A stretch of DNA of 54,173 nucleotides from a virus (taxonomy: Duplodnaviria; Caudoviricetes), in IMG/VR virus record IMGVR_UViG_3300013101_000011, positions 1 through 54,173 of that record; one strand, given 5' to 3'. This document shows positions 649 through 54,173 of this stretch, one piece after another (positions within the stretch are counted from its first letter, which is position 1; the number at the start of each line of letters is the position of its first letter). The notes beneath the pieces were generated by a model, which was not told the origin of the DNA, made no database searches, and saw nothing but the letters and a program-made list of their open reading frames with translations. A program made the translations under genes and the position numbers.

Positions 649-2922
649 TTATGAGAAAATATTAGTCTTAGGGAATTTAAGGAGTTCTTCAGTTATTACG
701 ACTTGACCTAAGGTAGAGCCGAATGTTGTTTCGTCGTTGTCGAGTGTCATCATGTCGTTGTCGAATGTTGTTGCAGGAGCATCGTCTAAATCTGACAGGC
801 TATTATCCCATACATACCGATCAACTTCAAAACCAAGTGTCTTAATATCCCACCCGTAATCGATTATGTTGAATAATATTTGTTGTGCTGTGCCGGGCTT
901 GCAATAAACAAGAGGCACCGCTGTAATAAATCCTAATGTTCTACCATCGGGTTGTGGACTAGTCATCCATTTTGGTAATAGATTGTCGCTAACACTTGTC
1001 TGTCCTATTTGATCTAAGATCCTTAAACGCATATTAGTCAAACTAGCCGGGTACCCAATTAATTGCCCATCACTGTTGTATGTTGGAATGCCTCCTTGTG
1101 CGATAACTTCTGCTGCGGACACATTATTTAATACTAGTTCTTGCCCAATAGATACATCACCTTCTTCTAGGAAGTCAGTCACGTCAGAATAAATTACTTC
1201 ATAAATCAAGTCACCATTTGCATCAAGTGCTTCTGCAATACGCAATTCGTCAAATCCAAATTTTCGTGTATAATGATTTTGCGTCATTGCGGCAGCGTAC
1301 GAAGTTCTACTAGATGGATTCAATCCGTTTACTAATTTAAATCGAACGTCGGCCGCTATTCCGAAATTCTCATCATCTAATCTATATACGTCTTCCCTCG
1401 GCACAAGAGCTGGTTGATCGGTTAACTGATTAAAGTAAATTCTGTCTTGCACTGGAAGATATGATACTAAGGTTAGGGATTCGTAAGGTTCGTTGTTTAC
1501 AGGAGCTACAATAATAGTGAATTCCATTTCGGTATCAATTACGGCAGTTACGTCAACTACCCTAACATCGAAAATAAAAGTGTTATCAAAGGAACCGCCT
1601 AAGTTACTGCAACTTGTATCTGGGCCGGGGCCTCCGTCGATTGTAGTAGCACCACCATCCAATTTAAAGTAATCAAATCTTGGTCGGCCAATAATTAAAC
1701 CCTCGGGTGTTAATGTTAATCCAGGAGGAAGTCGTCCGCCTACTAATGTGTAAGTCATTGCAGTTTCGAAAGTTGGAACAGCTTCAATAAACAATTCACT
1801 AACAGATCCATTGTCTAAACACATAATGGTTGGGTTAGTGAAAGTTAGGGCAGTGCTCAAGTCACCAGTTATTGTCATTGTGAATGTAGAGACGTTACTA
1901 GAGATAGTCGGATCTATAATTTTATATGTGATTATATCAAACGTAAATACTTCTTCCGCATCTACAATTACATCGAGGAATCCATGTATGTATCCGGATT
2001 CTGCATCTAATGCCAAGCTCGGAGGAAGTCCACCACCGGGGTTGCTGAACTCGATTGCATTTGATTCAAAATCATATCCTTCGAATTGGAATGCAAAATA
2101 ATTGTCGTGTAAATATGTACCTAAGTCGCCCTCTGGTGTAGTGACGATCGGATTAATTCCTGTTGATCTGTCTGCTGTGATAGTTGTGTCATCAGCTGTG
2201 ATATCTGTATTGTCTGCAGATAAATTGTATGTGCTTTTTAAGAATATTGAGAATGTTTTTGCATCATATCCAATACCGTCTGTGGTAGATATTGTAAACT
2301 GGTAATTTTTATCAAGTGTGCCTAGTCCGTAGTCGAAACCAAATTCACCAATGTCCTCATCAAACTTCGAACCGTCAAATCCTAAGTCAGTGCCTGCAGG
2401 CAGTGCGCTGACCGGGAAAGGATAACCACGTATGTAAGCTATTCTATCGTTGTCTGGATCTTGTACTAGGAATAATCCCTCGGGCAATACTGCGCCAGAT
2501 ACCGACCATGTTAATACGTTGGCGTCATCTTCGTCAATTGCGTCTAGTTGTATATCAACATACTCGCCGTAATAGAATTCATCTAGTTGGCCCGATGGAG
2601 TTATGATGTGCGGAATTCTTTGACCAGACACTTGCAAAGAAAATGTTACGTCCGATACTTCGTTCGTTGTTGTTGTTGCGCGAATAGTAAATAAGGATGA
2701 CGTATCAACGTCTACCTCTGCAGGCGTACCAACAATTTTAATTGGAAAGCCTGCAATTTGTGTTCCTGAGATATAAATGCCTTCTGGTAAGTCGCCCGCG
2801 ATGTGAGAATATGTTACCACATCCAAATCGGTATCGATCGCTTTAAGCTCGTACTCAAAGAAAATATTTTCCGCAATCGTACCTAAGTTCGAATTACGTA
2901 CCTGCCAGATTGGCTGTCCCAT
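649..2922 (-). CDS. Putative baseplate wedge / Ig-like repeat virion protein
   Basis: 757 aa, acidic, repeated LP(E/P)GL Ig-like modules, C-terminal LPKWMTSPQ...PLVYCKPG segment. Confidence 0.65.
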   Translation of the reverse strand: MGQPIWQVRNSNLGTIAENIFFEYELKAIDTDLDVVTYSHIAGDLPEGIYISGTQIAGFPIKIVGTPAEVDVDTSSLFTIRATTTTNEVSDVTFSLQVSGQRIPHIITPSGQLDEFYYGEYVDIQLDAIDEDDANVLTWSVSGAVLPEGLFLVQDPDNDRIAYIRGYPFPVSALPAGTDLGFDGSKFDEDIGEFGFDYGLGTLDKNYQFTISTTDGIGYDAKTFSIFLKSTYNLSADNTDITADDTTITADRSTGINPIVTTPEGDLGTYLHDNYFAFQFEGYDFESNAIEFSNPGGGLPPSLALDAESGYIHGFLDVIVDAEEVFTFDIITYKIIDPTISSNVSTFTMTITGDLSTALTFTNPTIMCLDNGSVSELFIEAVPTFETAMTYTLVGGRLPPGLTLTPEGLIIGRPRFDYFKLDGGATTIDGGPGPDTSCSNLGGSFDNTFIFDVRVVDVTAVIDTEMEFTIIVAPVNNEPYESLTLVSYLPVQDRIYFNQLTDQPALVPREDVYRLDDENFGIAADVRFKLVNGLNPSSRTSYAAAMTQNHYTRKFGFDELRIAEALDANGDLIYEVIYSDVTDFLEEGDVSIGQELVLNNVSAAEVIAQGGIPTYNSDGQLIGYPASLTNMRLRILDQIGQTSVSDNLLPKWMTSPQPDGRTLGFITAVPLVYCKPGTAQQILFNIIDYGWDIKTLGFEVDRYVWDNSLSDLDDAPATTFDNDMMTLDNDETTFGSTLGQVVITEELLKFPKTNIFS

Positions 2923-2925
2923 GTT

Positions 2926-3318
2926 TTATACATGATCCACTATTGCGGACTTCTTCCAGATCGGACTAGTTGCACCATCGTAGTCTGCAATACAGACATA
3001 CATGAATCCCGTATCCCAGGCTATATCACCTGCGGTGTCGCCTATCGCGCCAACGCCTGTTGCAGGGGTTCTAGTTGTGCTAATATTAATCGTGTCGGTA
3101 TCGAACACAATTATGCCGTTACCGTTTGCTGTTAGGGTTATATCTTCATCTAGAACAGATGGAGTGATATCATTAAGATTGAAAACTAGAGTGCTTGTTC
3201 CAATGCCGGTGATGTATATTTCGTCGAAGTTGTCATTAACTTTATCGAACGCGTCGCGGATAGGATCGCCGGTGTTGTCATTGGCGACCGTTCCTATATT
3301 TATTGTTTGCTGTGCCAT
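2926..3318 (-). CDS. Baseplate/tail protein with T4 gp9/gp10-like N-terminus
   Basis: N-terminal INIGTVANDNTGDPIRDAFDKVNDNF motif; GATAAATA upstream. Confidence 0.7.
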   Translation of the reverse strand: MAQQTINIGTVANDNTGDPIRDAFDKVNDNFDEIYITGIGTSTLVFNLNDITPSVLDEDITLTANGNGIIVFDTDTINISTTRTPATGVGAIGDTAGDIAWDTGFMYVCIADYDGATSPIWKKSAIVDHV

Positions 3319-5622: not shown

Positions 5623-6081
5623 TCACTTGCTGCGGATATTGTCGAGGTAATGGTAAGCTTCGAGATATTTAACTGTGCGTGTCTTGTCCTTTTCCCGTAT
5701 GCCTTTCATCCTAGTAGGATCCATGTTGTGTTTAAGGTCGCACATTTTGATAATAATGCACATTGGACATTCTGTAATACGTTCGATATAATCCTGATAG
5801 GATTCTCCGGGCTGGTGTGTCATTCTAACAACACCTGCAATCACTTCTTCACAGAAGCCTGCGTTCCGCAATCGTTCCTTAGTCCATTCTGGAATGTCCT
5901 CAAGCAAATCATGCATCACTGCAATTTGCATGGCTATTGAATTCTTTTGGGTGATCTTTCCAACCCGTTCCATTACCGTCAGGCAATGCAGAATGTACGG
6001 AAAGCCACCTTTATCAAGTTTGGCAACAAAGGCAGTTGCTGTTATTTGAATTGCTGTCGCTAGCTCTTTGCCATCTTTCAA
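5623..6081 (-). CDS. HD-domain protein, small (p)ppGpp hydrolase / Mesh1-like
   Basis: DKGGFPYILH, MHDLLED, IKMCDLKHN motifs. Confidence 0.8.
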   Translation of the reverse strand: MKDGKELATAIQITATAFVAKLDKGGFPYILHCLTVMERVGKITQKNSIAMQIAVMHDLLEDIPEWTKERLRNAGFCEEVIAGVVRMTHQPGESYQDYIERITECPMCIIIKMCDLKHNMDPTRMKGIREKDKTRTVKYLEAYHYLDNIRSK

Positions 6082-9240: not shown

Positions 9241-9445
9241 ACAAGTATTTATCTTTCATAATTGGTACCACTGCCTTTAAAGCTGCCAATTGTTCTCGTT
9301 GTTTCTTCCTACGATTCCGTTTACTTTTTATGTTTCGTCCTTTCCATGTAGGTGTAATACTATGACAATTAGGGCAGAGAATTCTTAAATTTTCTCGGCG
9401 ATGATCTTCATAATCGAACCTCGTCGTTGTTATGATATTTATCAA
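9227..9445 (-). pseudogene. HNH endonuclease remnant, C-terminal part only
   Basis: ENLRILCPNCHSITPTWKGRN present; N-terminal CxxC and HNH start missing; no good start codon. Confidence 0.6.
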
Positions 9446-9470
9446 GGTTCGAATAGAGGATGATTTTAAT

Positions 9471-9561
9471 TGGTACTAGGCGGAGGAATCGAACCTGCAC
9501 CAGGGGGTTATCTGCCCAATCCGTCTATAAAACGGCCCACTCGCCACGAGTTACGCCTAGC
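9471..9561 (-). tRNA. tRNA-Ile(UAU), atypical, long variable arm
   Basis: Acceptor GCTAGGC/GCCTAGT; loop TT-TAT-AG; ~20-nt variable region; TTCGATT; ACCA. Confidence 0.7.
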
Positions 9562-10283: not shown

Positions 10284-10437
10284 ATTGTATTGATCCTGCG
10301 CCTCAGTCACAACCCTGAGATCTCGCAGTCTATGTCGGCGGCCGCCGACATAAGTGGTAGCTATGTGCGTGGAATGATCATTAACGGCCTTTTCAACAAT
10401 CAGCGCCACTTTCTCAGCTTACGCAGGTCAATACAAT
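10284..10437 (-). ncRNA. Structured ncRNA, copy B
   Basis: ATTGTATTGA/TCAATACAAT terminal stem; 22-nt palindrome at 10331-10352; CTCAG-GGTTGTGA-CTGAG hairpin. Confidence 0.65.
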
Positions 10438-10618: not shown

Positions 10619-10706
10619 TGGAGCCAACGGTCAGATTCGAACTGACGATGCCCTTTCGGATGAGGCTTACAAAGCCCCTGCATTCGACCGCTAATGCTAC
10701 GTTGGC
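10619..10706 (-). tRNA. tRNA-Thr(UGU), long variable arm
   Basis: GGGGC-TTTGTAA-GCCTC; variable arm with GAAA loop; CCA. Confidence 0.8.
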
Positions 10707-11540: not shown

Positions 11541-11626
11541 TGGCTCCAGCGGTAGGGATCGAACCTACGCTCCCGGGGGAGTCTGCGCATTAACAGTGCG
11601 AAACATTACCTCTCTGCCACACTGGA
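11541..11626 (-). tRNA. tRNA-Asn(GUU), long variable arm
   Basis: CGCA-CTGTTAA-TGCG; CTCC/GGAG variable stem; flanked by a GTATTTTGG/CCAAAATAC inverted repeat. Confidence 0.8.
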
Positions 11627-16297: not shown

Positions 16298-17269
16298 CTA
16301 CCGCACAGAATTGATAATATCCATATGCTTATTGTAGATCCAATTGTCCCAATATTCCTTATCGCTAGTCTCAGGGAGGCTGGATGCTGCGGCAAGTCTA
16401 GTAACCTCTGCAACCAATTCCTCAATAGCTGGTTGAACGACATCCTTGTAACCACATTTGCCAAGCTTGACATCCATGATAAAGTCTGTCTCCGGCAGAG
16501 GGTAATTGAACCCGCCAATCTCGTAAATGTATTTTGCTTGGTAGCCTGCGCGAAGTGCGTGACTAACTGCTTTCCAGTCAACGCCCATATTGCTTTCAGC
16601 TTTCTTTGCGCGATGACCATAGCCATCATAAATCTTTTGCATGTTATCTAAGATATACGGAAGCTTGTTTTTGAAGTCGAACTTACGTTGGCAAATTTCG
16701 TAGAAGTGTTGCTTCTCACCTTTAACTTCGGTTTCGACAATGTATGCATGTTCGCCAATTGGAATGTCGTCGATAACTTCTCCCAATTTCCATTCGTGAC
16801 CATCCTCACCATAGGTACCAAATTGTCTAAGGTAATCCATTGCCTCTGTTAATGCTGCAAGGCGCGAACCTTTAACACCATACTTCGCGGCTTGGCCTTG
16901 TACATAATCAACATATGAGGACATGTCTTTTGTGTAGAACAGGTGCCTCTTTTCCTGCAACTCTGCCCAAATTGGAGATGGGATTAAGACCTGCGCGTCC
17001 GATGCGTGAAGCATATCTATTGCAGTATTCTTTCCAGCCATTGCCATTTTTACAAACTTCTGCAAGCTCATAATTTCGTTGTCGACATCGTCTGCGGTGT
17101 TCTTGCTCACGTCATCGCCAGTGGATTGCTTGCGGCTGAAGTCTGCCTCTTGCATGATAATTTCTTTTGCAGTTGGCAACACAATAGCCGCGTAATCAAT
17201 ATCGCTTCCTTCGTGGTTCAACCCATACAGGTGAGAACCATATTCCATTTTTACTACAATTTCGTTCAT
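16298..17269 (-). CDS. Pol-beta superfamily nucleotidyltransferase, T4 NrdC.11/RlaP-like
   Basis: YGSHLYG...SDID; QAAKYGVKGSR; DWKAVSHA motifs. Confidence 0.8.
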   Translation of the reverse strand: MNEIVVKMEYGSHLYGLNHEGSDIDYAAIVLPTAKEIIMQEADFSRKQSTGDDVSKNTADDVDNEIMSLQKFVKMAMAGKNTAIDMLHASDAQVLIPSPIWAELQEKRHLFYTKDMSSYVDYVQGQAAKYGVKGSRLAALTEAMDYLRQFGTYGEDGHEWKLGEVIDDIPIGEHAYIVETEVKGEKQHFYEICQRKFDFKNKLPYILDNMQKIYDGYGHRAKKAESNMGVDWKAVSHALRAGYQAKYIYEIGGFNYPLPETDFIMDVKLGKCGYKDVVQPAIEELVAEVTRLAAASSLPETSDKEYWDNWIYNKHMDIINSVR

Positions 17270-17908
17270 TATTATTTCCTAATTTTTCAATACTGCGTCT
17301 GCCTTCTCACGAATGTCTGCAGAGATGGGATAAGTCCTTGCCCACGTGGCAAAGTCTTTTAATTTAGTCTGCTCCGCTAGGAGCCTTGTTCTAAGATCGT
17401 ACGTATCGCGCTCGTACTTTAATTGTAGAGCACTAAACGTATCGCGCAGTTCCCTGAGCTTAGTTTTTATTGGACTTGCGTTTATCATTCATCGCGCAAA
17501 GCCTTCCTGGCAATTGTGTAGAGTGCATTCGCATCCCATGATACCGCAGCATCGCCTGCTTTGGCATCTTCGGTGAGTTGCACAATCAGCTCGAGGGCGG
17601 CGCGGTGACGTTCTGCATTAATTAATGCAATGATTTCAGTCCCCATAGGGAGGTCGCCTACATAATCTATCACTGGTTTATCTCTACTCATTTTCCCTTT
17701 CTCCTGCGCAGTTCATCCGCGCAATAATTAATTTCATCTGCATAATATCCTACCTTATGCCCCGAGGGGTTTGCCTTTATTGCTGCAAAGGCGTCATGTG
17801 CAATATAATGTAGGATATCCTCGCTTTTATGTTTTAAGCTTTTGGGATATTCAATGTGATCAATATGCGATTCCATGTAAACACTATACAACCATTGTGG
17901 AATGATTC

Positions 17909-30823: not shown

Positions 30824-30914
30824 TGGTGGGACGGGCAGGGTTCGAACCTGCAACGGTGTTATTCACACTCCGGATTAAAAGTCCGGTACCTTCAGCCACT
30901 TCGGTCACCGACCC
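30824..30914 (-). tRNA. tRNA-Lys(UUU), long variable arm
   Basis: CCGGA-CTTTTAA-TCCGG; GTGT/ACAC variable stem; ACCA. Confidence 0.8.
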
Positions 30915-31870: not shown

Positions 31871-31944
31871 TGGTGTGTCCCACGAGAATCAAACTCGTTC
31901 CTAAAGGGCCACAACCTCTAATGCTATCACTACACCAAGGACAC
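31871..31944 (-). tRNA. tRNA-His(GUG), atypical (A73, no G-1)
   Basis: AGAGG-TTGTGGC-CCTTT; ACCA. Confidence 0.7.
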
Positions 31945-31968: not shown

Positions 31969-32044
31969 TGGGGTGACGTACGGGGTTCGAACCCGTTCCG
32001 ACTGAATCACAATCAGCCATGCTTCCAAGTACACCTACGTCACC
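31969..32044 (-). tRNA. tRNA-His(GUG)
   Basis: G-1/C73; GCTGA-TTGTGAT-TCAGT; CCA. Confidence 0.9.
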
Positions 32045-32833: not shown

Positions 32834-33712
32834 TTATTTGATTATGACATTTGCAATATTATTGCATTTTGCTATTTTATTTAAGACATTCTGTTTATTA
32901 AATGGATCCGGTGTGAAATCCAATTGAGCTATTTTTATCTTGCCCGCTGTTAATCGCACGTCACCTACTTCATATCCAAATTCAGACAGGAGCGTTGCGT
33001 TGGTTCGTTTGTATTCTTCTTCTGCGTTTAATTGGGCAATGCCATCTGAATCGCAAAACCTAATAATAAAGTCCGCGCTATAATGTAGGTATGGAACAAT
33101 GGCATGATGGTCTGTATCATTTGCGACAGCCAATTCCTGTATGGGTTTACCCACATCAGTGTAATGCACATAGACCCCGCCAAAGTCCATTGAGGTAGTA
33201 AACAAGTCGTAATCCTCTGGCGCATACAATTCTGTTTTAGGCAAATCAAAATACACTACTCGTATCTTTCTGCTCTGCGGATCGCCAGAAGATTCGCAAC
33301 GATGTATGGTTTGATTTATGTAACTAAGGCTTTCCCTCAATGCGGGATTATTCAGTAGCAATTGATCTTCTTTCCAAGAATCTAATGTGCCGTGTGTTAT
33401 TTCAAACACCGCATGTAAATAATTTAATGTTTGCTGATCGGTCACGTCTGTTAAGTGTCTGTTAAACAGGCCGGGTTTAATCTCGTTGCATATATCGATT
33501 TTTTGATTCATGAAGGAAACCAACCAATCGTTACTCCACTCGTTATTTAGATTGTAAAACGCCCATGGCTCACTAATAGGATCCTTGCGTTCTTTTGCAG
33601 CATAGAATCTAGCCAGCCACTTGTCTTTGAAATGTGTCTCTTCAAAGGTGCAAGGTAATTCGTAAATCAACGTCGGTGCGGAGGTATGGTTTAATTGGAT
33701 TACTAATTTCAT
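32834..33712 (-). CDS. Hypothetical protein
   Basis: 292 aa, coupled to the TauD-like gene. Confidence 0.7.
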   Translation of the reverse strand: MKLVIQLNHTSAPTLIYELPCTFEETHFKDKWLARFYAAKERKDPISEPWAFYNLNNEWSNDWLVSFMNQKIDICNEIKPGLFNRHLTDVTDQQTLNYLHAVFEITHGTLDSWKEDQLLLNNPALRESLSYINQTIHRCESSGDPQSRKIRVVYFDLPKTELYAPEDYDLFTTSMDFGGVYVHYTDVGKPIQELAVANDTDHHAIVPYLHYSADFIIRFCDSDGIAQLNAEEEYKRTNATLLSEFGYEVGDVRLTAGKIKIAQLDFTPDPFNKQNVLNKIAKCNNIANVIIK

Positions 33713-34620
33713 ACAGGTCGATCACCTTTTATCATTATGCGGCGCATTTCTCTAACATAACCATAATGATCATTATGGGGAGCATGTATGGTGCATCGAT
33801 TATCCCAAATTGCTAAGGTATCTTTTTCCCATTTTAATCGACAGGTGAAGTCTGGAAAGGTTGAATGTTCGATCAGCTTTCGTAAAGTTGGCAGACTTTG
33901 TTCTTGACTTTGGCCGACAAAATGAGCAGTGAAGCTGGAACATACAATCAATGCTTTTCGCCTAGTTACTGGATGAGTCCATACAACAGGATGAACCGAT
34001 TCCTTTTCCCACTCCTTAGAATCCGCAGACTTGTATACACCTGACTTCTTGGTTCCTGGTTTAGGAATTCCAGTGTAAGAAAGCGAATTGGAATAGACTG
34101 CTTTCTTGTATTCCACCTCATCGCGAAGCCATGTAGGCAATGTATCCCAAGCGAGATACTGGTTCGAAAAAGTTGTATCTCCACCAACCGGCGGGGATAT
34201 TATGGAATTTAGAATAGTGAATTTTGGCGGACATTCTTGCGCCAAAGAATCGCCATGCCAACTGCTGCCGAAATTGTATACCGTGTCAGCCTCTGCGCGA
34301 AAGTTAGAGATCTCCGGATACTCCGACATGCCAAAAGAAGTCGGCGCGCAAATCGGCTCGCCAAAACGTCTTGCAAAATCTCGAAATGATTTTGGGCTAA
34401 GGGATTGCTTCCTAGCAAAAAGCATTAGATGATCAGTTAGCGCAGCCTTAAGTTCTGTTTCTGCATTGTCTGTTATATTGGCTAAATCTAGGCCGACAAC
34501 TTCTGCGCCCATCGCCCCAGACATCGGCACAACAGAGAAGTTCTCGTATTCTTTAGGATTCTGTTGTGGCTCGTGTGCGACTGCTGGAAGGTAGTAATAA
34601 GTAGATTGGTATTTGTTCAT
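33709..34620 (-). CDS. TauD/TfdA family Fe(II)/2-oxoglutarate dioxygenase
   Basis: WHGD, GGDT, HPVV..HP, WDNR...H, R motifs. Confidence 0.9.
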   Translation of the reverse strand: MNKYQSTYYYLPAVAHEPQQNPKEYENFSVVPMSGAMGAEVVGLDLANITDNAETELKAALTDHLMLFARKQSLSPKSFRDFARRFGEPICAPTSFGMSEYPEISNFRAEADTVYNFGSSWHGDSLAQECPPKFTILNSIISPPVGGDTTFSNQYLAWDTLPTWLRDEVEYKKAVYSNSLSYTGIPKPGTKKSGVYKSADSKEWEKESVHPVVWTHPVTRRKALIVCSSFTAHFVGQSQEQSLPTLRKLIEHSTFPDFTCRLKWEKDTLAIWDNRCTIHAPHNDHYGYVREMRRIMIKGDRPV

Positions 34621-35580: not shown

Positions 35581-35943
35581 CTACGCAGATATTAACTTTT
35601 CTGCATCCTCGTCCGGCAGATACAGATTGTACTTGCGCATTACTTCTCGCTTCGCTCCATAAAGCGGCTCGGTGGCAATTGCAGTATAACCCGGCAAGTC
35701 CGGCTCGTAAAACATGCAATGATCGACTCCATGGATTCCGATCCTTTCGGACGCTTTAAGTAACTCAGCTTCATTCTCAACACCAAAAAGGATAAGGTGA
35801 AGAGGATGTTCCGGCTTTTCAAATTTCCAACCTGCTTCGTAAGTTGCATGAGCCGCTTGCACGATTTGCTGTGCAGCGGTCAAGTCAGTTCTTATAAAGA
35901 CATAGGTATACGGAATGTGGTCAGTGTTTTCTCTGAATTCCAT
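35581..35943 (-). CDS. Peptidyl-tRNA hydrolase 2 (PTH2)-like protein
   Basis: YVFIRTDL...QIVQAAHA...FYEPDL...TAIA pattern. Confidence 0.7.
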   Translation of the reverse strand: MEFRENTDHIPYTYVFIRTDLTAAQQIVQAAHATYEAGWKFEKPEHPLHLILFGVENEAELLKASERIGIHGVDHCMFYEPDLPGYTAIATEPLYGAKREVMRKYNLYLPDEDAEKLISA

Positions 35944-36320
35944 TACTTTTCTCCTTTTGCCTTAATCTCATCCAATTCACTGCGGATTCTTTCAAGCATC
36001 TCTTGCGAAATTGTTTCGCCAAAGGGTGCAAGTAAATAATCTTTTGTGTGAGGGGATTTGATGCTGTAAAACGCTCGAGCTAACTTGTACTGGTGTTCAG
36101 TAAGCTTGCCGCTATTCTCCGGAGTAGTCCAACCTTTGGTCCAGTCTCGGTTGCGTAAAATTGCATACAATAAAAAGTGCTGGGAGTCTAAAGGCTTCCG
36201 CGCCTTAGCCCATGCTTTGAATGCTGCTGTGAATTCCAGGTAATGTTCCTTTGATGTGAACATGTCGCCGGTTTGTGTTTCTTCGATTTGTGTCTCTTTT
36301 GCTTCTAAAAATGATAACAT
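35943..36320 (-). CDS. Hypothetical protein coupled to the PTH2-like gene
   Basis: GAGGA SD; TAATG overlap. Confidence 0.7.
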   Translation of the reverse strand: MLSFLEAKETQIEETQTGDMFTSKEHYLEFTAAFKAWAKARKPLDSQHFLLYAILRNRDWTKGWTTPENSGKLTEHQYKLARAFYSIKSPHTKDYLLAPFGETISQEMLERIRSELDEIKAKGEK

Positions 36321-36413
36321 GATTTATTCCTCAATAATTAATATGTTTCTGCAGAACCTTGCTGCAGGTAGCAGGATTATTCCTGCGATTAGTTTAGTCG
36401 TAATTCATATTAA

Positions 36414-36464
36414 CTACGGCGGATCATGTAGTGAAGGGACTTAGTTATCTGTAACTTTAATCAT
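36414..36464 (-). promoter_or_regulatory. Leader uORF MIKVTDN-(TAA)-VPSLHDPP-(TAG)
   Basis: GATAAATA then GAGGA SD; in-frame ochre at 36441-36443; Pro-Pro-stop; three hairpins before the next gene. Confidence 0.6.
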
Positions 36465-36540
36465 TTCAAATTCCTCTTGTTGTAAGTTATTTATCATCGT
36501 AAAATATAGTATACAGGTTTTCTATTCATTGTACACTATT

Positions 36541-36722
36541 TTGGTAAAATTTGGTAACGTGGGATGGATTCGAACCACCGTCCTCCGGGGCATTAACCTC
36601 GGGCTATTCCAACGCACAGCCGCAATCGATTCCTCGGGTCGCCTGATCGAGCTCGATACTCTACAGTGCAATCTTTGGTATTGGCCAGTACTCTCAGCTA
36701 CCACGTTACCAAATTTTACCAA
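36541..36722 (-). ncRNA. Large tRNA-like RNA (copy C) within a 22-bp inverted repeat
   Basis: TTGGTAAAATTTGGTAACGTGG inverted repeat; TAGCTGAGA; 12-nt palindrome at 36646-36657; GGTGG-TTCGAAT-CCATC; ACCA. Confidence 0.7.
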
Positions 36723-37057
36723 GTCGCGTACTTTTCAACGCGAGTTGGATACAAAGTGTTGCCACCGTTTGCCGCAGAAATGGCATCTTCAATCCAACGC
36801 ATACCATATGCCAATCTTGGCACAGCAAACTTTCCAATGTCATCGTCATGAACTGCAAAAAATAAATCAATGCGTCCACCAGGGCCGGAATCGTCGGGGT
36901 TGGTAGTTATTTGTTCCAGGTACTGCCCACGTGCTCCGAGATCCTCTAAGAGAAACTGTTCAAAGTCTTGTTCCTGACCTTCTTCAAGTGTTGTTCCGGG
37001 CCAAACACAAACCTGCGTATGCCCATCTGCCAATTGTACATTTTCAGTCTTGTTCAT
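36716..37057 (-). CDS. Hypothetical protein
   Basis: AGGAG SD; 113 aa. Confidence 0.65.
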   Translation of the reverse strand: MNKTENVQLADGHTQVCVWPGTTLEEGQEQDFEQFLLEDLGARGQYLEQITTNPDDSGPGGRIDLFFAVHDDDIGKFAVPRLAYGMRWIEDAISAANGGNTLYPTRVEKYATW

Positions 37058-37074: not shown

Positions 37075-37150
37075 TGGGGGAATGGCCGGGACTCGAACCC
37101 GGGACCGGCGGAGTTAAAAGCCGCTGCTCTGCCAACTGAGCTACCAAACC
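37075..37150 (-). tRNA. tRNA with UUA anticodon (ochre-suppressor-like), mismatched acceptor stem
   Basis: 76 nt; canonical numbering gives GCGGC-TT[TTA]AC-TCCGC; U-U at 3:70 and 4:69; C73; CCA. Confidence 0.65.
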
Positions 37151-39394: not shown

Positions 39395-40132
39395 CTAATT
39401 AGATGTAACTTCGCTGTTGTCGACAGTATTAATTGTGACAGTGCCAGAGCTAGATTTGATAATGTTGTCTCCGACTATGTCTGGATTGTTTACAACAATA
39501 TCCTTTAAAGTATCAATACCTTCATTCAAATCAACCTTGTTGCCGGCCCGGTATGCTGTTGTGCTGCAAGTGAAGTTCGAATACGAATCTGCAAGTCCTG
39601 CAACATTGTTAGAGACCTTGAAACTGTTGTTCACATTCATGCCGTAGTCACGTGCATAACGCTTCGCATCAATTCCTGCACCTGCGAAAATAAATTCCCA
39701 ATCCTTCTTCTTACTCTTAACAAGCTTTTGAACATCTCTCTGGGTATATTCGCTGCTGTAGTTTTCATCGCCGTCTGTGTGGATAAGAACAATAGCTCGC
39801 TTCTTACTTTTTAGACGATCAATTGTTGAACCAATCGCATCATACATAGCTGTCATGCCACGTGTGAAATATTGGCGATGAGTTAACTTCTTCACCCTTT
39901 GTAAATTGACTTGATCATAAATTACTTCATACTCGCTGTCAAATTTTACTAGGGTAAGTTTTGCCTTGCCCGGAAGTTCTTGCTGCTCCTTAAGGAACTT
40001 GTTAAAATTACTGATAACATGTTCTTCTTGTCCGCCCATGGATGTTGAACAATCCAAAATGCAGATGATGTGTGTTGTCTTTGCTTTCTTTTCTTTTACT
40101 ATTACTTCTACTTCAATTTTATTGCTAGCCAT
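39395..40132 (-). CDS. von Willebrand factor A domain protein
   Basis: MIDAS residues ILDCSTSM, GMTAMYDA, TDG.EN. Confidence 0.85.
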   Translation of the reverse strand: MASNKIEVEVIVKEKKAKTTHIICILDCSTSMGGQEEHVISNFNKFLKEQQELPGKAKLTLVKFDSEYEVIYDQVNLQRVKKLTHRQYFTRGMTAMYDAIGSTIDRLKSKKRAIVLIHTDGDENYSSEYTQRDVQKLVKSKKKDWEFIFAGAGIDAKRYARDYGMNVNNSFKVSNNVAGLADSYSNFTCSTTAYRAGNKVDLNEGIDTLKDIVVNNPDIVGDNIIKSSSGTVTINTVDNSEVTSN

Positions 40133-51948: not shown

Positions 51949-52293
51949 CTAATTTTCGAGAGGACCGTACCCTTTATCGTCTTCGTACCAATAAATGTAC
52001 TGTTTAACTTCGCCCTTATAGCCGGACCCTTTTAGTCCTTTAAGGTGGCCGGTTTTCGGGCATTCTGAGTGATACCATATTACATCATTGCCGAATTGCT
52101 TCTTCAACATCCATTGGCGATGTGCTTTTAGTTTACCGAGATGCAGCAACAATTTGGTTTTTCGCTTTTTATTGAAACCGATGAATCCATTTAGCCGGAT
52201 GTGCGCATCTTGGATTGAGCAGTTTATATCCAAAAGCCGCGGCCATTGTGTTTCGTAAAACATTTTATGAATTACAAGATTTTGAATTTTCAT
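51949..52293 (-). CDS. Hypothetical protein
   Basis: Coupled ORF. Confidence 0.55.
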   Translation of the reverse strand: MKIQNLVIHKMFYETQWPRLLDINCSIQDAHIRLNGFIGFNKKRKTKLLLHLGKLKAHRQWMLKKQFGNDVIWYHSECPKTGHLKGLKGSGYKGEVKQYIYWYEDDKGYGPLEN

Positions 52294-52928
52294 TACTTCC
52301 TCTTGCCGTCCTCATGGCGTGGTTCAGTTACTTCGCACTTGCTCATTATCTTAACAAGGTCCCAAATATTCCACGGATAGTAATCGTTAGTGTCGACTCC
52401 GATGTCTCGTCCTCGGCCTGCTGCTACTTGCGGAACGGATCCATGTGTATGTCCGTAAAAATGGAATGCTCCGTGGTGCATACGATTCCACGTATACAAA
52501 GGATAATGCAATAAGATGATCGGAGCAGGACCGGGTTGCGGCAGCTTCAATTCGTGGTAGTCCTTCATCCAAACAAACTGATCTAAGATCAACTTCATCT
52601 TAGTCTTACGCAGTTGCCTGTCGTGATTACCAAAAATGAAATGCTTGTTACCATTCATTCGTACCAGGATCTCTGAGATTTCCGTTTCGTTCGCAAACGC
52701 AAAGTCGCCTAAGAAGTATACGTCATCACTGTACTTTACGACAGAGTTATGACGCTCGATCATTTCCTCACGCATATGAGTCGTGTCGGTAAATGGGCGA
52801 TCGCAAAAACGGATAATGTTCTTGTGCCCAAAGTGGTGATCAGATGTCACCCAAATGTTCTTTCTTTCGTTCATTCTGTTTCTTCTGTTTCTTCCTCTTT
52901 CTTCGGCACCAACGATACCACTGGGCAT
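52293..52928 (-). CDS. Calcineurin-like metallophosphoesterase
   Basis: SDHHFGH, LGD, GNHD, HYP and GHTH motifs; true start probably 52874. Confidence 0.9.
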   Translation of the reverse strand: MPSGIVGAEERGRNRRNRMNERKNIWVTSDHHFGHKNIIRFCDRPFTDTTHMREEMIERHNSVVKYSDDVYFLGDFAFANETEISEILVRMNGNKHFIFGNHDRQLRKTKMKLILDQFVWMKDYHELKLPQPGPAPIILLHYPLYTWNRMHHGAFHFYGHTHGSVPQVAAGRGRDIGVDTNDYYPWNIWDLVKIMSKCEVTEPRHEDGKRK

Positions 52929-53425: not shown

Positions 53426-54173
53426 TCATGTTAGAACCTCGCGGTCGAAAAAGTCTCGCAAATATGCAAAACGTTCCTGCTCAGTCAACACCATAAATGC
53501 ATCCTTGTTCTCTGCTAAATGATCCAACACGATATAATACTCTTCGTCTAGAATCTGTTTTGCAGCTCGCGTATCATCTAAGATTTCGTTCAACCGCTTT
53601 TCAGTCTTGCGTCCTAAAAATTTAGTAGCTAGGTAATATGGAGACTTGATTTTAATTTCGTTTCCAAAGTCGTCCCATACTACAAATCCTTCATGCTTCA
53701 CTGTGCGAGCTTCCTCTTTCAATTTAGCATAAGTATCGTAACGGTGCCAGTTTGGACGTCTGCATCCTAATTTATCTGCCTCTGCATCTAGTTCTGTTTC
53801 AGTCAATGCATGTTGATCGGCGTCCCAAGTCTTATAGCGAGCACCTAACAAATATGCTCCATATACTTCTGGCACGATGTGCGGATCGGTGGGATCGCAT
53901 ATTTCAAATGTGTAAGACAAGTCCGGATTCATCTTAAACCATGCCAACATCATAATATGATGTTCCGCAAGGTCTGCAAAATCAGACGCAATTGATCCTG
54001 TTGTAGATACGAACAATTCATTCTTATGTATTGTTGCGCAACCCATAAATCCGTTAATCTTTTCTGAGGCTGTGCAGGGCTTAGTCACTAACAAGCGCGG
54101 TGCCTTCTTTTCGTGTGCATTGAAAATCTTAGTAGGCGGGCGTTGGATGATGTTGTAATCATCGTCAACAACA
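53426..54173 (-). CDS. RNA ligase, T4 Rnl1-like, 5' end outside the window
   Basis: KIFN, EKINGF, FEI, EGFV and KIK motifs; frame open to the window edge. Confidence 0.85.
   Translation of the reverse strand, partial: VVDDDYNIIQRPPTKIFNAHEKKAPRLLVTKPCTASEKINGFMGCATIHKNELFVSTTGSIASDFADLAEHHIMMLAWFKMNPDLSYTFEICDPTDPHIVPEVYGAYLLGARYKTWDADQHALTETELDAEADKLGCRRPNWHRYDTYAKLKEEARTVKHEGFVVWDDFGNEIKIKSPYYLATKFLGRKTEKRLNEILDDTRAAKQILDEEYYIVLDHLAENKDAFMVLTEQERFAYLRDFFDREVLT

Follow-up and report, generated by a model that had tools for sequence, protein, structure and literature searches.

Transfer RNAs (tRNAs) whose anticodons are cognate to stop codons have been noted repeatedly in phages of standard genetic code, and have gone unexplained. 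The standard-code jumbo phage XacN1 carries two CUA suppressor tRNAs for which, according to the available text of its report, no target could be found (PMC5852040). RsoM2USA has a CUA suppressor tRNA (PMC8504454) and Atu_ph07 a UCA suppressor tRNA (PMC6102473), both without an identified target in the available portions of those reports, and phage G is reported to encode a Sup:UUA tRNA (PMC12484599). Peptidyl-tRNA hydrolase genes are listed for XacN1 (PMC5852040) and Atu_ph07 (PMC6102473) and are left unconnected with the suppressor tRNAs in the text available for both. Here we describe a tRNA with the anticodon UUA, cognate to the ochre stop codon TAA, which is encoded at positions 37075..37150 on the minus strand of the IMG/VR virus contig IMGVR_UViG_3300013101_000011 (the whole contig, 54,173 bases and 42% G+C, is referred to as the window). 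As in the jumbo phages above, a stop anticodon occurs in a genome that uses all three stops; unlike those reports, which in their available text give no target or guess at many, we can propose one specific target with a cognate stop gate. Among such anticodons UUA is rare, and the available text of these reports names one other, that of phage G.

Other described systems resemble parts of the arrangement found here. In phages that recode a stop codon (code 15 or code 4), a suppressor tRNA has been proposed to unlock late genes with in-frame stops (10.1101/2021.08.26.457843), and recoding of TAA was not found in two phage surveys, as far as their available text extends (10.1101/2021.08.26.457843 and PMC13037316). 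Our proposal has in common with these accounts a suppressor tRNA that switches on genes containing in-frame stops, but whereas genome-wide recoding places in-frame TAG or TGA in many genes, the window has the standard code and a single stop, TAA, at a fixed spot in one operon. The ermC and cat attenuators use a leader open reading frame (ORF) with its own Shine–Dalgarno (SD) sequence and a helix that hides the next SD and AUG, so that the position of the ribosome decides the outcome, and TnaC stalls at a Pro-stop. A leader with an SD, a predicted helix and a part for ribosome position recur here, together with a readthrough extension that ends in Pro-Pro-stop, but the signal would be the passage of a stop as decided by a trans-acting tRNA rather than an antibiotic or an amino acid. 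In the autoregulation of prfB, which encodes release factor 2 (RF2), an early in-frame UGA and a +1 frameshift sense the gene's own product; the module described below would likewise use an early stop in a translation-factor gene as a sensor of decoding at that codon, but it would sense readthrough by a separate tRNA and its product would be a hydrolase. Laboratory ochre suppressors of Escherichia coli have the anticodon UUA and derive from Lys, Gln or Tyr tRNAs. The phage tRNA has the same UUA, U33 and A37 and a class-I body that resembles Lys-type tRNAs, and differs in being natural, phage-borne, apparently of a CUA lineage, and marked by C73 and stem mismatches.

From comparisons of sequence, we conclude that the UUA tRNA is probably the ochre member of a phage suppressor-tRNA family, and that readthrough of a matched stop would unlock an operon encoding a conserved five-helix protein (ORF125) and a protein with the fold of Pth2 peptidyl-tRNA hydrolases (PTH2-like). 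The wider proposition, to which we give an even chance, is that jumbo phages carry a tRNA-keyed lock, in which a dedicated suppressor tRNA unlocks a PTH2-like hydrolase, often together with the five-helix partner, and in which key and lock co-evolve. The single stop of such a lock would sit either in a leader that masks the operon or within the first codons of the PTH2-like gene, with CUA and TAG combined in nearly all lineages and UUA and TAA combined here.

The assignment of the tRNA itself draws on ARAGORN, Rfam, a tally of its stems and its orthology to CUA tRNAs. ARAGORN called a tRNA-Stop(tta) of 76 nucleotides (nt) with a full cloverleaf and the anticodon at position 34, and the Rfam model RF00005 matched over its entire length (model positions 1–71 of 71) with 53.3 bits against a gathering threshold of 29, rank 8 of the 20 tRNA matches in the window. 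In the Infernal register the 7-nt anticodon loop reads U32 U33 U34 U35 A36 A37 C38, which puts a stop-cognate anticodon at positions 34–36 of a loop whose closing pair, C31.U39, is mismatched. The other non-standard pairs are two U.U mismatches of the acceptor stem, 3-70 and 4-69. The discriminator is C73, and the CCA end is encoded, as in all 20 tRNAs that ARAGORN called in the window. Every tertiary position that is conserved in tRNAs is intact (U8, A14, G18 G19, U33, purine 37, G53 U54 U55 C56, A58 and C61). The original prediction, made from the sequence alone, had described a 76-nt tRNA with a canonical UUA anticodon, C31-U39, two U-U acceptor mismatches and C73, and all of these were borne out.

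Scanning metagenome contigs with an alignment of PTH2-like relatives yielded 57 loci, two of which, L073 and L074, are collinear with the window and encode PTH2-like proteins 83% and 81% identical to that of the window. In both, a tRNA heads the same string of leader, ORF125 and PTH2-like gene. The L073 tRNA aligns with the UUA tRNA at 81% over 70 nt by blastn, and the ungapped identities are 57/76 for L073 and 56/76 for L074. The three tRNAs have C31.U39 in common, C73 is common to those of the window and L074, and the L073 tRNA has, like that of the window, two acceptor-stem mismatches. ARAGORN assigned the anticodon CUA to the tRNAs of L074 and a further locus, L084; it reported the L073 tRNA as 'Arg(tct) at position 33', for which the Infernal register gives the loop UUCUAAA, that is, CUA. 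Two substitutions, C34 to U and A38 to C, set the loop of the UUA tRNA apart from those of its CUA orthologues. The tRNAs of L073 and L074 are preceded by a sigma-70-like promoter (TTGCAA or TTGACT, 17 nt, TATAAT).

The same comparison identifies the putative lock. In the window and in 7 of the 57 metagenome loci (L073, L074, L077, L081, L084, L085 and L121, with five distinct leader sequences; termed type A), a short leader ORF with its own SD lies upstream of ORF125. The leader of the window, which like all features of the window given here is on the minus strand, has its SD at 36471..36477, where it aligns with the AGGAG of the relatives, and encodes MIKVTDN at 36441..36464, with the ATG at 36464 and the gate codon TAA at 36443-36441; an upstream ATG at 36497 is in frame. 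The readthrough extension (36405..36440) comprises eight codons, VPSLHDPP, then TAG at 36416-36414, two codons and TGA at 36407-36405. In L073, an SD and the mini-ORF MKKVTDN follow within 45 nt of the tRNA and lead to TAG, TLSQHDPP and TGA; the L074 leader reads MTKVTHT-TAG-INSIHDPP-TGA. Type-A leaders in general have 6–11 codons, TAG (7/7 loci), exactly eight in-frame codons ending in HDPP, and TGA. In the window, as in every type-A sequence, the extension divides into four variable codons and His-Asp-Pro-Pro. The tRNA is a tRNA(CUA) in every type-A locus whose contig reaches it (L073, L074, L084 and the copies L085 and L121). Key and lock are thus paired as CUA with TAG in the relatives and as UUA with TAA in the window. 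The second stop, one that the resident tRNA should not read well, is TGA in the seven TAG-gated loci and TAG followed two codons later by TGA in the window; an ochre suppressor also reads UAG by wobble. Upstream of the leader, the conserved motif GATAAATAA (36487..36495), which we take to resemble the T4 late-promoter consensus, stands in the same place in 5 of the 6 type-A sequences.

These orthologues bear on several claims of the original prediction. It had placed the tRNA about 600 nt upstream of a TAA-containing leader, and the distance is indeed 611 nt from the 3′ end of the tRNA to the leader ATG. It had linked the tRNA, the leader and the PTH2-like gene functionally, a link strengthened by orthologous modules that keep a cognate stop anticodon and leader stop. 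It had counted homologues with other anticodons as a point against itself: the anticodon of the orthologues does differ, but CUA is again a stop anticodon and the leader stop shifts to TAG with it, which strengthens the suppressor reading. Of its two interpretations, the suppressor idea is therefore supported by CUA orthologues with TAG leaders, whereas its release-factor bypass, taken up below, is not.

Minimum-free-energy folds were computed for the window and for five orthologues, each over the region that begins at the first stop and ends shortly after the start codon of ORF125; the same design was predicted in all six. The His-Asp codons of the extension pair with an AUCAUG containing this start codon, and the Pro-Pro codons pair with the ORF125 SD. 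In the window, this masking strand (36419..36429) is predicted to pair with the ORF125 initiation region at 36317..36332 (SD 36328-36332, ATG 36320-36318), and the helix encloses an inner stem whose 5′ arm (36406..36417), right after the second stop, pairs with a 3′ arm just upstream of the ORF125 SD (36334..36345). A helix that hides SD and AUG and overlaps leader codons is what attenuation calls for. None of 200 shuffled sequences folded as well as that of the window (z = −3.86); the z-scores of the five orthologues were −3.54, −2.69, −4.30, −1.30 and −3.34, so that 5/6 folds reached −2.69 or lower. The position of the inner stem is kept in relatives with other sequences, and those of L077 and the window are unrelated. 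The Pro codons of HDPP vary synonymously between sequences (CCT or CCG), which suggests that the peptide may matter as well as the pairing.

These features suggest how the switch would work. Release factor would terminate translation at the leader TAA, so that the ribosome stops four codons short of the helix; with the helix unopened, the SD and AUG of ORF125 would stay paired with the His-Asp-Pro-Pro codons, and ORF125 and the PTH2-fold gene would go untranslated. When the UUA tRNA reads the TAA, the ribosome would continue for eight codons, enter and melt the helix, and end on Asp-Pro-Pro-stop. A Pro-Pro-stop context terminates slowly, and a ribosome lingering there would leave the ORF125 start region free. 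Control of ORF125 by the position or stalling of a ribosome on the leader is suggested by the fixed 4 + 4 codon spacing and the Pro-Pro-stop ending, and we infer readthrough at the gate, indirectly, from the cognate stop in a conserved leader. The UUA tRNA would decode UAA, and probably UAG by wobble, and one of its jobs would be that of trans-acting key to this translational switch; the window would then hold the ochre version (UUA/TAA) of an otherwise amber module (CUA/TAG). Most other phages would follow the same logic with simpler wiring, in which the PTH2-like gene itself carries a TAG 2–5 codons behind its ATG.

The operon behind the leader encodes ORF125 (125 amino acids (aa), 35943..36320) and the PTH2-fold protein (120 aa, 35581..35943). 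The latter matches Pfam PF01981 weakly, with 17.4 bits, under the cut-off of 23, but 11 of 24 family members match it at E ≤ 0.01 (best 5.4e-4). The family profile matched one peptidyl-tRNA hydrolase chain in the PDB (E 0.66), and in this alignment the R-T-D-L and Q..HA motifs of the family appear to line up with the solved hydrolase; phmmer searches against the PDB and NCBIfam gave nothing. An AlphaFold (AF2) model had a predicted local distance difference test score (pLDDT) of 86.4 and a predicted template-modelling score (pTM) of 0.79. Its best 13 listed Foldseek rows (ranks 1–15) were solved chains of Pth2 or Pth2 fold (1wn2, 2zv3, 1q7s, 3erj, 1rlk, 1xty, 2gax and 1rzw) at probabilities of 0.99–1.00 and TM scores of 0.45–0.74, and we regard the Pth2 fold as confirmed at the level of the model. 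Invariant in the family are R18, D20, Q25-A30, H32, D82, T87 and R99, a set that takes in both of these motifs. A large protein collection contained 23 relatives of the protein, 14 of them 74–88% identical to it.

ORF125 is a recurrent neighbour of such genes. It has 39 homologues and an AF2 model of five helices (pLDDT 84.7), and it matched nothing in Pfam, PHROG or NCBIfam; the structure searches gave no match either (Foldseek best E 2.4, VIA-align best Z 4.8, best Atlas score 0.85). Outside the window, 17 loci have a match to its profile hidden Markov model immediately upstream of a PTH2-like gene. This arrangement occurs in the leader clade and, with weaker matches, in five further lineages (L079/L130, L082/L083, L080, L087 and L089), and in four more lineages the family is found nearby downstream of the PTH2-like gene.

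The association of PTH2-like genes with stop codons and suppressor tRNAs extends well beyond the leader clade. A census of 71 loci (57 from metagenomes, 10 from IMG/VR and 4 from cultured phages) was reduced to 53 clusters at 90% identity of the PTH2-like protein. The commonest design of the upstream frame is ATG, 1–4 codons, TAG and then the conserved protein, as in M-S-TAG-I... or M-K-K-L-TAG-I-T-D-K-N-Y.... An in-gene TAG 2–5 codons after the ATG was present in 32/53 clusters, whereas TAA or TGA occupied that position in 0/53. The gate TAG is followed by A (26 clusters) or G (6 clusters), and never by a pyrimidine. Among the remaining 21 clusters are the leader-type clade, genes that have a start of their own, two fusions and contigs whose length does not allow a decision. 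TAG ends only 0–6 ORFs per locus and is the rarest stop in PTH2-like loci; that the gate is always this stop argues against plain termination–reinitiation, for which any stop would serve. Among 35 loci of at least 10 kb, crude coding density gained no more from reading TAG through than it did in the TGA and TAA controls, which indicates that these phages are not TAG-recoded. Leader variants outside type A, in which TAG is followed by Pro-rich codons, are found in L126, L118 and L094, suggesting that Pro-rich readthrough extensions recur: L126 (~9440-9510) has M-R-T-P-F-W-TAG and then a stretch with Pro-Pro-Pro, and L118 (~10308-10375) has M-F-T-TAG and then G-P-P-P.

The tRNAs around these genes are biased in the same direction. 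ARAGORN called 70 tRNAs in the 57 metagenome loci, led by 23 with the anticodon CUA, followed by CAU (8), GCC (7) and UCC (7), and including a single UCA. A tRNA(CUA) was called in 22/57 loci and a stop-anticodon tRNA of any kind in 23/57; among loci of 2.5 kb or longer, the latter share is 20/38. Most of these tRNAs share the strand of the PTH2-like gene, and many lie within 1 kb of it. For comparison, the 73 tRNAs of three further tRNA-rich phage contigs include no CUA. The original prediction had asked whether such tRNAs co-occur with PTH2-like genes across phages, and by this comparison they do. Of the 10 IMG/VR loci, 5 are gated and 4 have a tRNA(CUA). The one UCA tRNA (L090/L131, 3542-3619; 'SeC' in ARAGORN) lies 6.4 kb upstream of a PTH2-like gene at which no TGA gate was seen.

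By tblastn, the PTH2-like gene is present in 35 phage records, nearly all of them jumbo phages, and 5 of the 8 cultured phages examined have a TAG gate. The gate reads M-A-Q-TAG in Cronobacter phage GAP32 (JN882285, 290.1–290.5 kb, L140) and in Pectobacterium phage CBB (L181), where the annotated genes GAP32_397 and CBB_406 start downstream of it. It reads M-T-H-TAG in Serratia phage BF (L182), M-T-TAG in Acinetobacter phage ME3 and M-L-TAG in Ralstonia phage RsoM2USA (MG752970, ~68.9–69.2 kb, L143). The gene is unannotated in BF and in RsoM2USA, so that one of the phages with an orphan suppressor itself carries a gated PTH2-like gene; it is also unannotated in several Erwinia and Yersinia phage records. 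The late annotated starts and missing annotations are likely to result from the in-frame TAG after the ATG. GAP32 and RsoM2USA have one tRNA(CUA) each, 2.8 kb and 13 kb from the gated gene. In XacN1 and RAS14 the PTH2-like domain is fused to a larger ORF, and RaK2 has a gene with its own start. Literature searches returned no paper that links a phage suppressor tRNA to a stop-gated Pth2-like gene, although supplementary tRNA tables may list these tRNAs.

The window uses the standard genetic code, and genome-wide recoding of TAA is not supported. As the original prediction had stated, TAA is a common true stop: it is the commonest among 101 crude minus-strand ORFs of at least 60 aa (TAA 53, TGA 28, TAG 20), and in an earlier two-strand ORF call it ends 42 of 80 minus-strand ORFs. 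Reading through TAA lifts the crude coding density of the window from 0.71 to 0.81 because neighbouring ORFs fuse, and the rise is similar in unrelated loci. Of the 8 junctions at which TAA separates adjacent ORFs of one frame, none is spanned by a PHROG alignment, and of the 4 TAG junctions none is clearly spanned, the sole exception being a gain of 4.8 bits at one. A scan for other TAA-gated ORFs in the window gave no convincing case. The exceptional junction lies in a nucleotidyltransferase frame (16298-17488), where readthrough of a TAG at ~17281 makes the PHROG alignment begin 7 residues before the stop and raises it from 291.3 to 296.1 bits; the gain may be accidental, or readthrough may affect a second gene here. 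At 649-3318, a 130-aa ORF that ends in TAA matches only the first ~50 positions of baseplate and tail-fibre families of 400–700 residues, and a 757-aa ORF without a family match starts in the same frame one codon after that TAA; no alignment spans the stop.

Several observations weigh against the proposed switch. The UUA/TAA combination is known from one genome, so the covariation of anticodon and stop amounts to one event, and since TAA is the commonest stop of this phage, the drift of a decayed gate from TAG to TAA would by itself be unsurprising. The UUA tRNA has three stem mismatches, the most of any tRNA in the window (each of the other 19 has fewer), in addition to its unusual C73. No sigma-70-like promoter lies directly upstream of it, unlike in L073 and L074; a promoter scan of its surroundings found 7 sites against 4.0 ± 2.6 expected, none immediately upstream. 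Between it and the leader lie about 580 nt of inserted DNA that L073 lacks. If active, an ochre suppressor would also read through roughly every second stop of the phage itself, but no excess of backup stops is seen behind TAA: an in-frame stop follows within three codons in 11/53 cases, compared with 15 and 11 in the other two frames. A gapped alignment places the body of the tRNA equally near to Lys(UUU)b of the window (59/76) and to the L073 tRNA (59/76), so identity alone would not establish its orthology, which rests on synteny and shared quirks; the entire lineage may go back to a Lys-like tRNA. The strands of the outer, key helix hardly vary, so it offers no covariation, and the L084 fold (z = −1.30) is no better than its shuffles. 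Finally, that the switch would activate rather than repress is something we infer from the simpler in-gene TAG wiring.

Some of these points are what would be expected of an inactive or decaying copy, in which the amber key has mutated (C34 to U), the gate has drifted to the common TAA and the module is being lost. The three stem mismatches, C73, the C38 in place of the relatives' A38, the lost adjacent promoter and the insertion that parts tRNA from leader could all be told in this way, but we consider decay quite improbable. The tRNA scores in the middle of the range for the window with every invariant position kept, stem mismatches occur in 9 of the 19 other tRNAs, and the L073 orthologue has two acceptor mismatches as well. 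The leader SD, the open eight-codon extension, HDPP, the masking helix and an inner stem rebuilt from new sequence are intact in the window, as are ORF125 and the PTH2-like gene. The original prediction had offered another way to discount the anticodon, a shifted Lys(UUU) reading of an enlarged loop. The gene would then encode a form of tRNA-Lys(UUU) whose loop, CUUUUAA and two further bases, is widened or displaced, and which reads AAA while evading anticodon nucleases or serves as their decoy. With C31.U39 open, the loop does contain the Lys loop sequence; the window has four Lys tRNAs and a set of tRNA-repair genes; in a loop-masked comparison, the window's own Lys(UUU)b came closest among 92 phage tRNAs, and U4.U69 is common to the UUA tRNA and two Lys tRNAs of the window; and one other phage contig contains a Lys-like tRNA whose loop has 8 nt. 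Both ARAGORN and Infernal nevertheless give UUA in the canonical register, a shifted stem cannot pair, and the UUA tRNA has C73 where all four Lys tRNAs have A73. The C31.U39 mismatch that prompted the shifted reading is, by comparison of sequences, an inherited quirk of the CUA lineage, whose loops are un-Lys-like, and this disfavours the Lys variant, which would also leave the cognate TAA of a conserved leader unexplained; we hold it to be very unlikely.

A working suppressor could also serve other ends. It might mainly serve to lengthen proteins of the host or the phage, to disrupt termination in the host or to counter a stop-codon defence, with the match to the leader secondary or coincidental. 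Orphan suppressors without known targets have been reported, as far as the available texts go, in the standard-code jumbo phages XacN1, RsoM2USA, Atu_ph07 and phage G; any stop of this phage has a prior of about one half of being TAA; and the tRNA(CUA) genes of GAP32 and RsoM2USA lie kilobases away from the gated gene. Such a general role would leave unaccounted for that the gate is TAG in 32/32 gated clusters though TAG is the rarest stop there, and that the leader architecture is conserved around a cognate stop; apart from the 4.8-bit gain, the junctions of the window show no family alignment that would mark other targets, nor does it hold another convincing TAA-gated ORF. We judge a general suppressor with an incidental leader match unlikely, but the two roles are compatible and both could hold. 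The release-factor bypass of the original prediction, in which the tRNA occupies stops and the PTH2-like enzyme releases the peptide in place of host release factors, could draw on the tight linkage of suppressor tRNAs with PTH2-like genes and on the proposed gating of the enzyme's synthesis by the tRNA. In the module, however, the enzyme would depend on readthrough rather than termination, the 54 kb showed no release-factor inhibitor, and to our knowledge Pth2 enzymes act on free and not on ribosome-bound peptidyl-tRNA; we give this bypass very little credence. The reading we prefer remains that of a suppressor tRNA matched to the stop of the leader.

The ~580-nt stretch that L073 lacks is filled by ORF113 and a tRNA-like element. 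ORF113 (113 aa, 36716..37057) has no assigned function and matched nothing in Pfam, PHROG or NCBIfam; homologues with 57% and 50% identity are found in two other phage contigs, neither with a tRNA alongside. The tRNA-like element (36552..36707) has a perfect 7-bp acceptor stem, extendable to 15 bp with its flanks, a T arm and an ACCA end, and an insertion of ~87 nt in place of the D and anticodon arms. This uncertain member of the module folds at −58.5 kcal/mol (z = −2.98), is recognized by ARAGORN only with the intron option and with a doubtful anticodon, and has no Rfam match.

Searches for closer relatives returned little. A megablast of 4 kb against 50,697 phage records gave no match, and the DNA ligase of the window led to no useful relatives, with tblastn identities below 30% to any phage record. 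Exact tRNA patterns with a free anticodon loop had no match in IMG/VR and none in the metagenome contigs; in GTDB they matched only two actinomycete tRNA-Met genes, which are irrelevant, and distant blastn matches of the UUA tRNA were only generic Lys, Asn, Met and Ile tRNAs at 75–87%. The ORF113-related contig G002 has 21 tRNAs, none with UUA, and two contigs related through the nucleotidyltransferase have 27, none with UUA or CUA. A leader-pattern scan of IMG/VR gave one chance match, without a leader. A pattern of the D arm plus TTTTAA matched once, in the 120-kb IMG/VR phage contig L072 (789-862, minus strand), at a Lys-like tRNA with an 8-nt anticodon loop (UUUUAAAC; ARAGORN 'ttaa') that stands beside normal Lys(UUU) and Lys(CUU) genes.

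The window is probably a piece of a tRNA-rich jumbo phage, because the related contigs found are only 15–35% complete by CheckV at 46–59 kb. It encodes 22 tRNAs, all on the minus strand (ARAGORN and Rfam combined; each found 20), and its PHROG matches include T4-like N-termini of baseplate and tail-fibre proteins, a nucleotidyltransferase, an HD (SpoT-like) hydrolase, an RNA ligase, a phosphoesterase and an ATP-dependent DNA ligase. Identical sequence occurs in contigs of two sediment runs, from which the window may stem, and short identical pieces in one marine and one hydrothermal-vent run. Contigs from four DNA runs are identical, without variation, wherever they cover the region; at the tRNA itself, the tRNAs of other organisms pile up. 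A tRNA repair and maintenance set comprises the RNA ligase (53426-54094), the phosphoesterase (52293-52928), the nucleotidyltransferase (16298-17269), which is probably CCA-adding, and the small HD/SpoT-like hydrolase (5623-6081); with the four Lys tRNAs, it fits pressure from tRNA-targeting host defences. Long variable arms are expected only in Leu, Ser and Tyr tRNAs. Four other tRNAs of the window, of 86–91 nt, have them: Lys(UUU) (30824-30914), Thr(UGU) (10619-10706), Asn(GUU) (11541-11626) and Ile(UAU) (9471-9561), most of which adjoin a normal-length copy with the same anticodon. Of two tRNA-His genes (31871-31944 and 31969-32043), one has C73 with a preceding G (G-1 type) and the other A73 with a preceding A. 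Near the module lie genes for a TauD/TfdA-family dioxygenase (Pfam E 8.9e-49; 33709-34620) and a von Willebrand A-domain protein (39395-40132).

What the PTH2-like enzyme would do once unlocked can be guessed at in two ways. Suppressor strains load ribosome-rescue systems, and short peptidyl-tRNAs drop off the ribosome; the enzyme might be a feed-forward supply that clears such by-products of suppression, namely dropped-off or stalled peptidyl-tRNA. The Pth2 fold also serves aminoacyl-tRNA deacylases, and the enzyme might instead provide negative feedback by deacylating, and so limiting, the charged suppressor.

The module gives the suppressor tRNAs of standard-code phages a concrete, testable target, and a gene for a Pth2-fold enzyme that several published jumbo-phage annotations miss or truncate turns out to be amber-gated. 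If the switch operates as proposed, it would be the first defined target for the suppressor tRNAs of standard-code jumbo phages, among them GAP32-like phages, RsoM2USA and ME3, and would couple stop suppression to peptidyl- or aminoacyl-tRNA hydrolysis in a feedback or feed-forward circuit. It would represent a natural orthogonal pair of tRNA and stop-codon gate, of interest for synthetic biology, and a case of key–lock co-evolution between an anticodon and a regulatory stop codon. The ochre version in the window would mean that the system can move even to the commonest stop of its own genome. It would also hint at a need for phages to keep the extent or the by-products of suppression under control, which bears on how full recoding of the genetic code could evolve.

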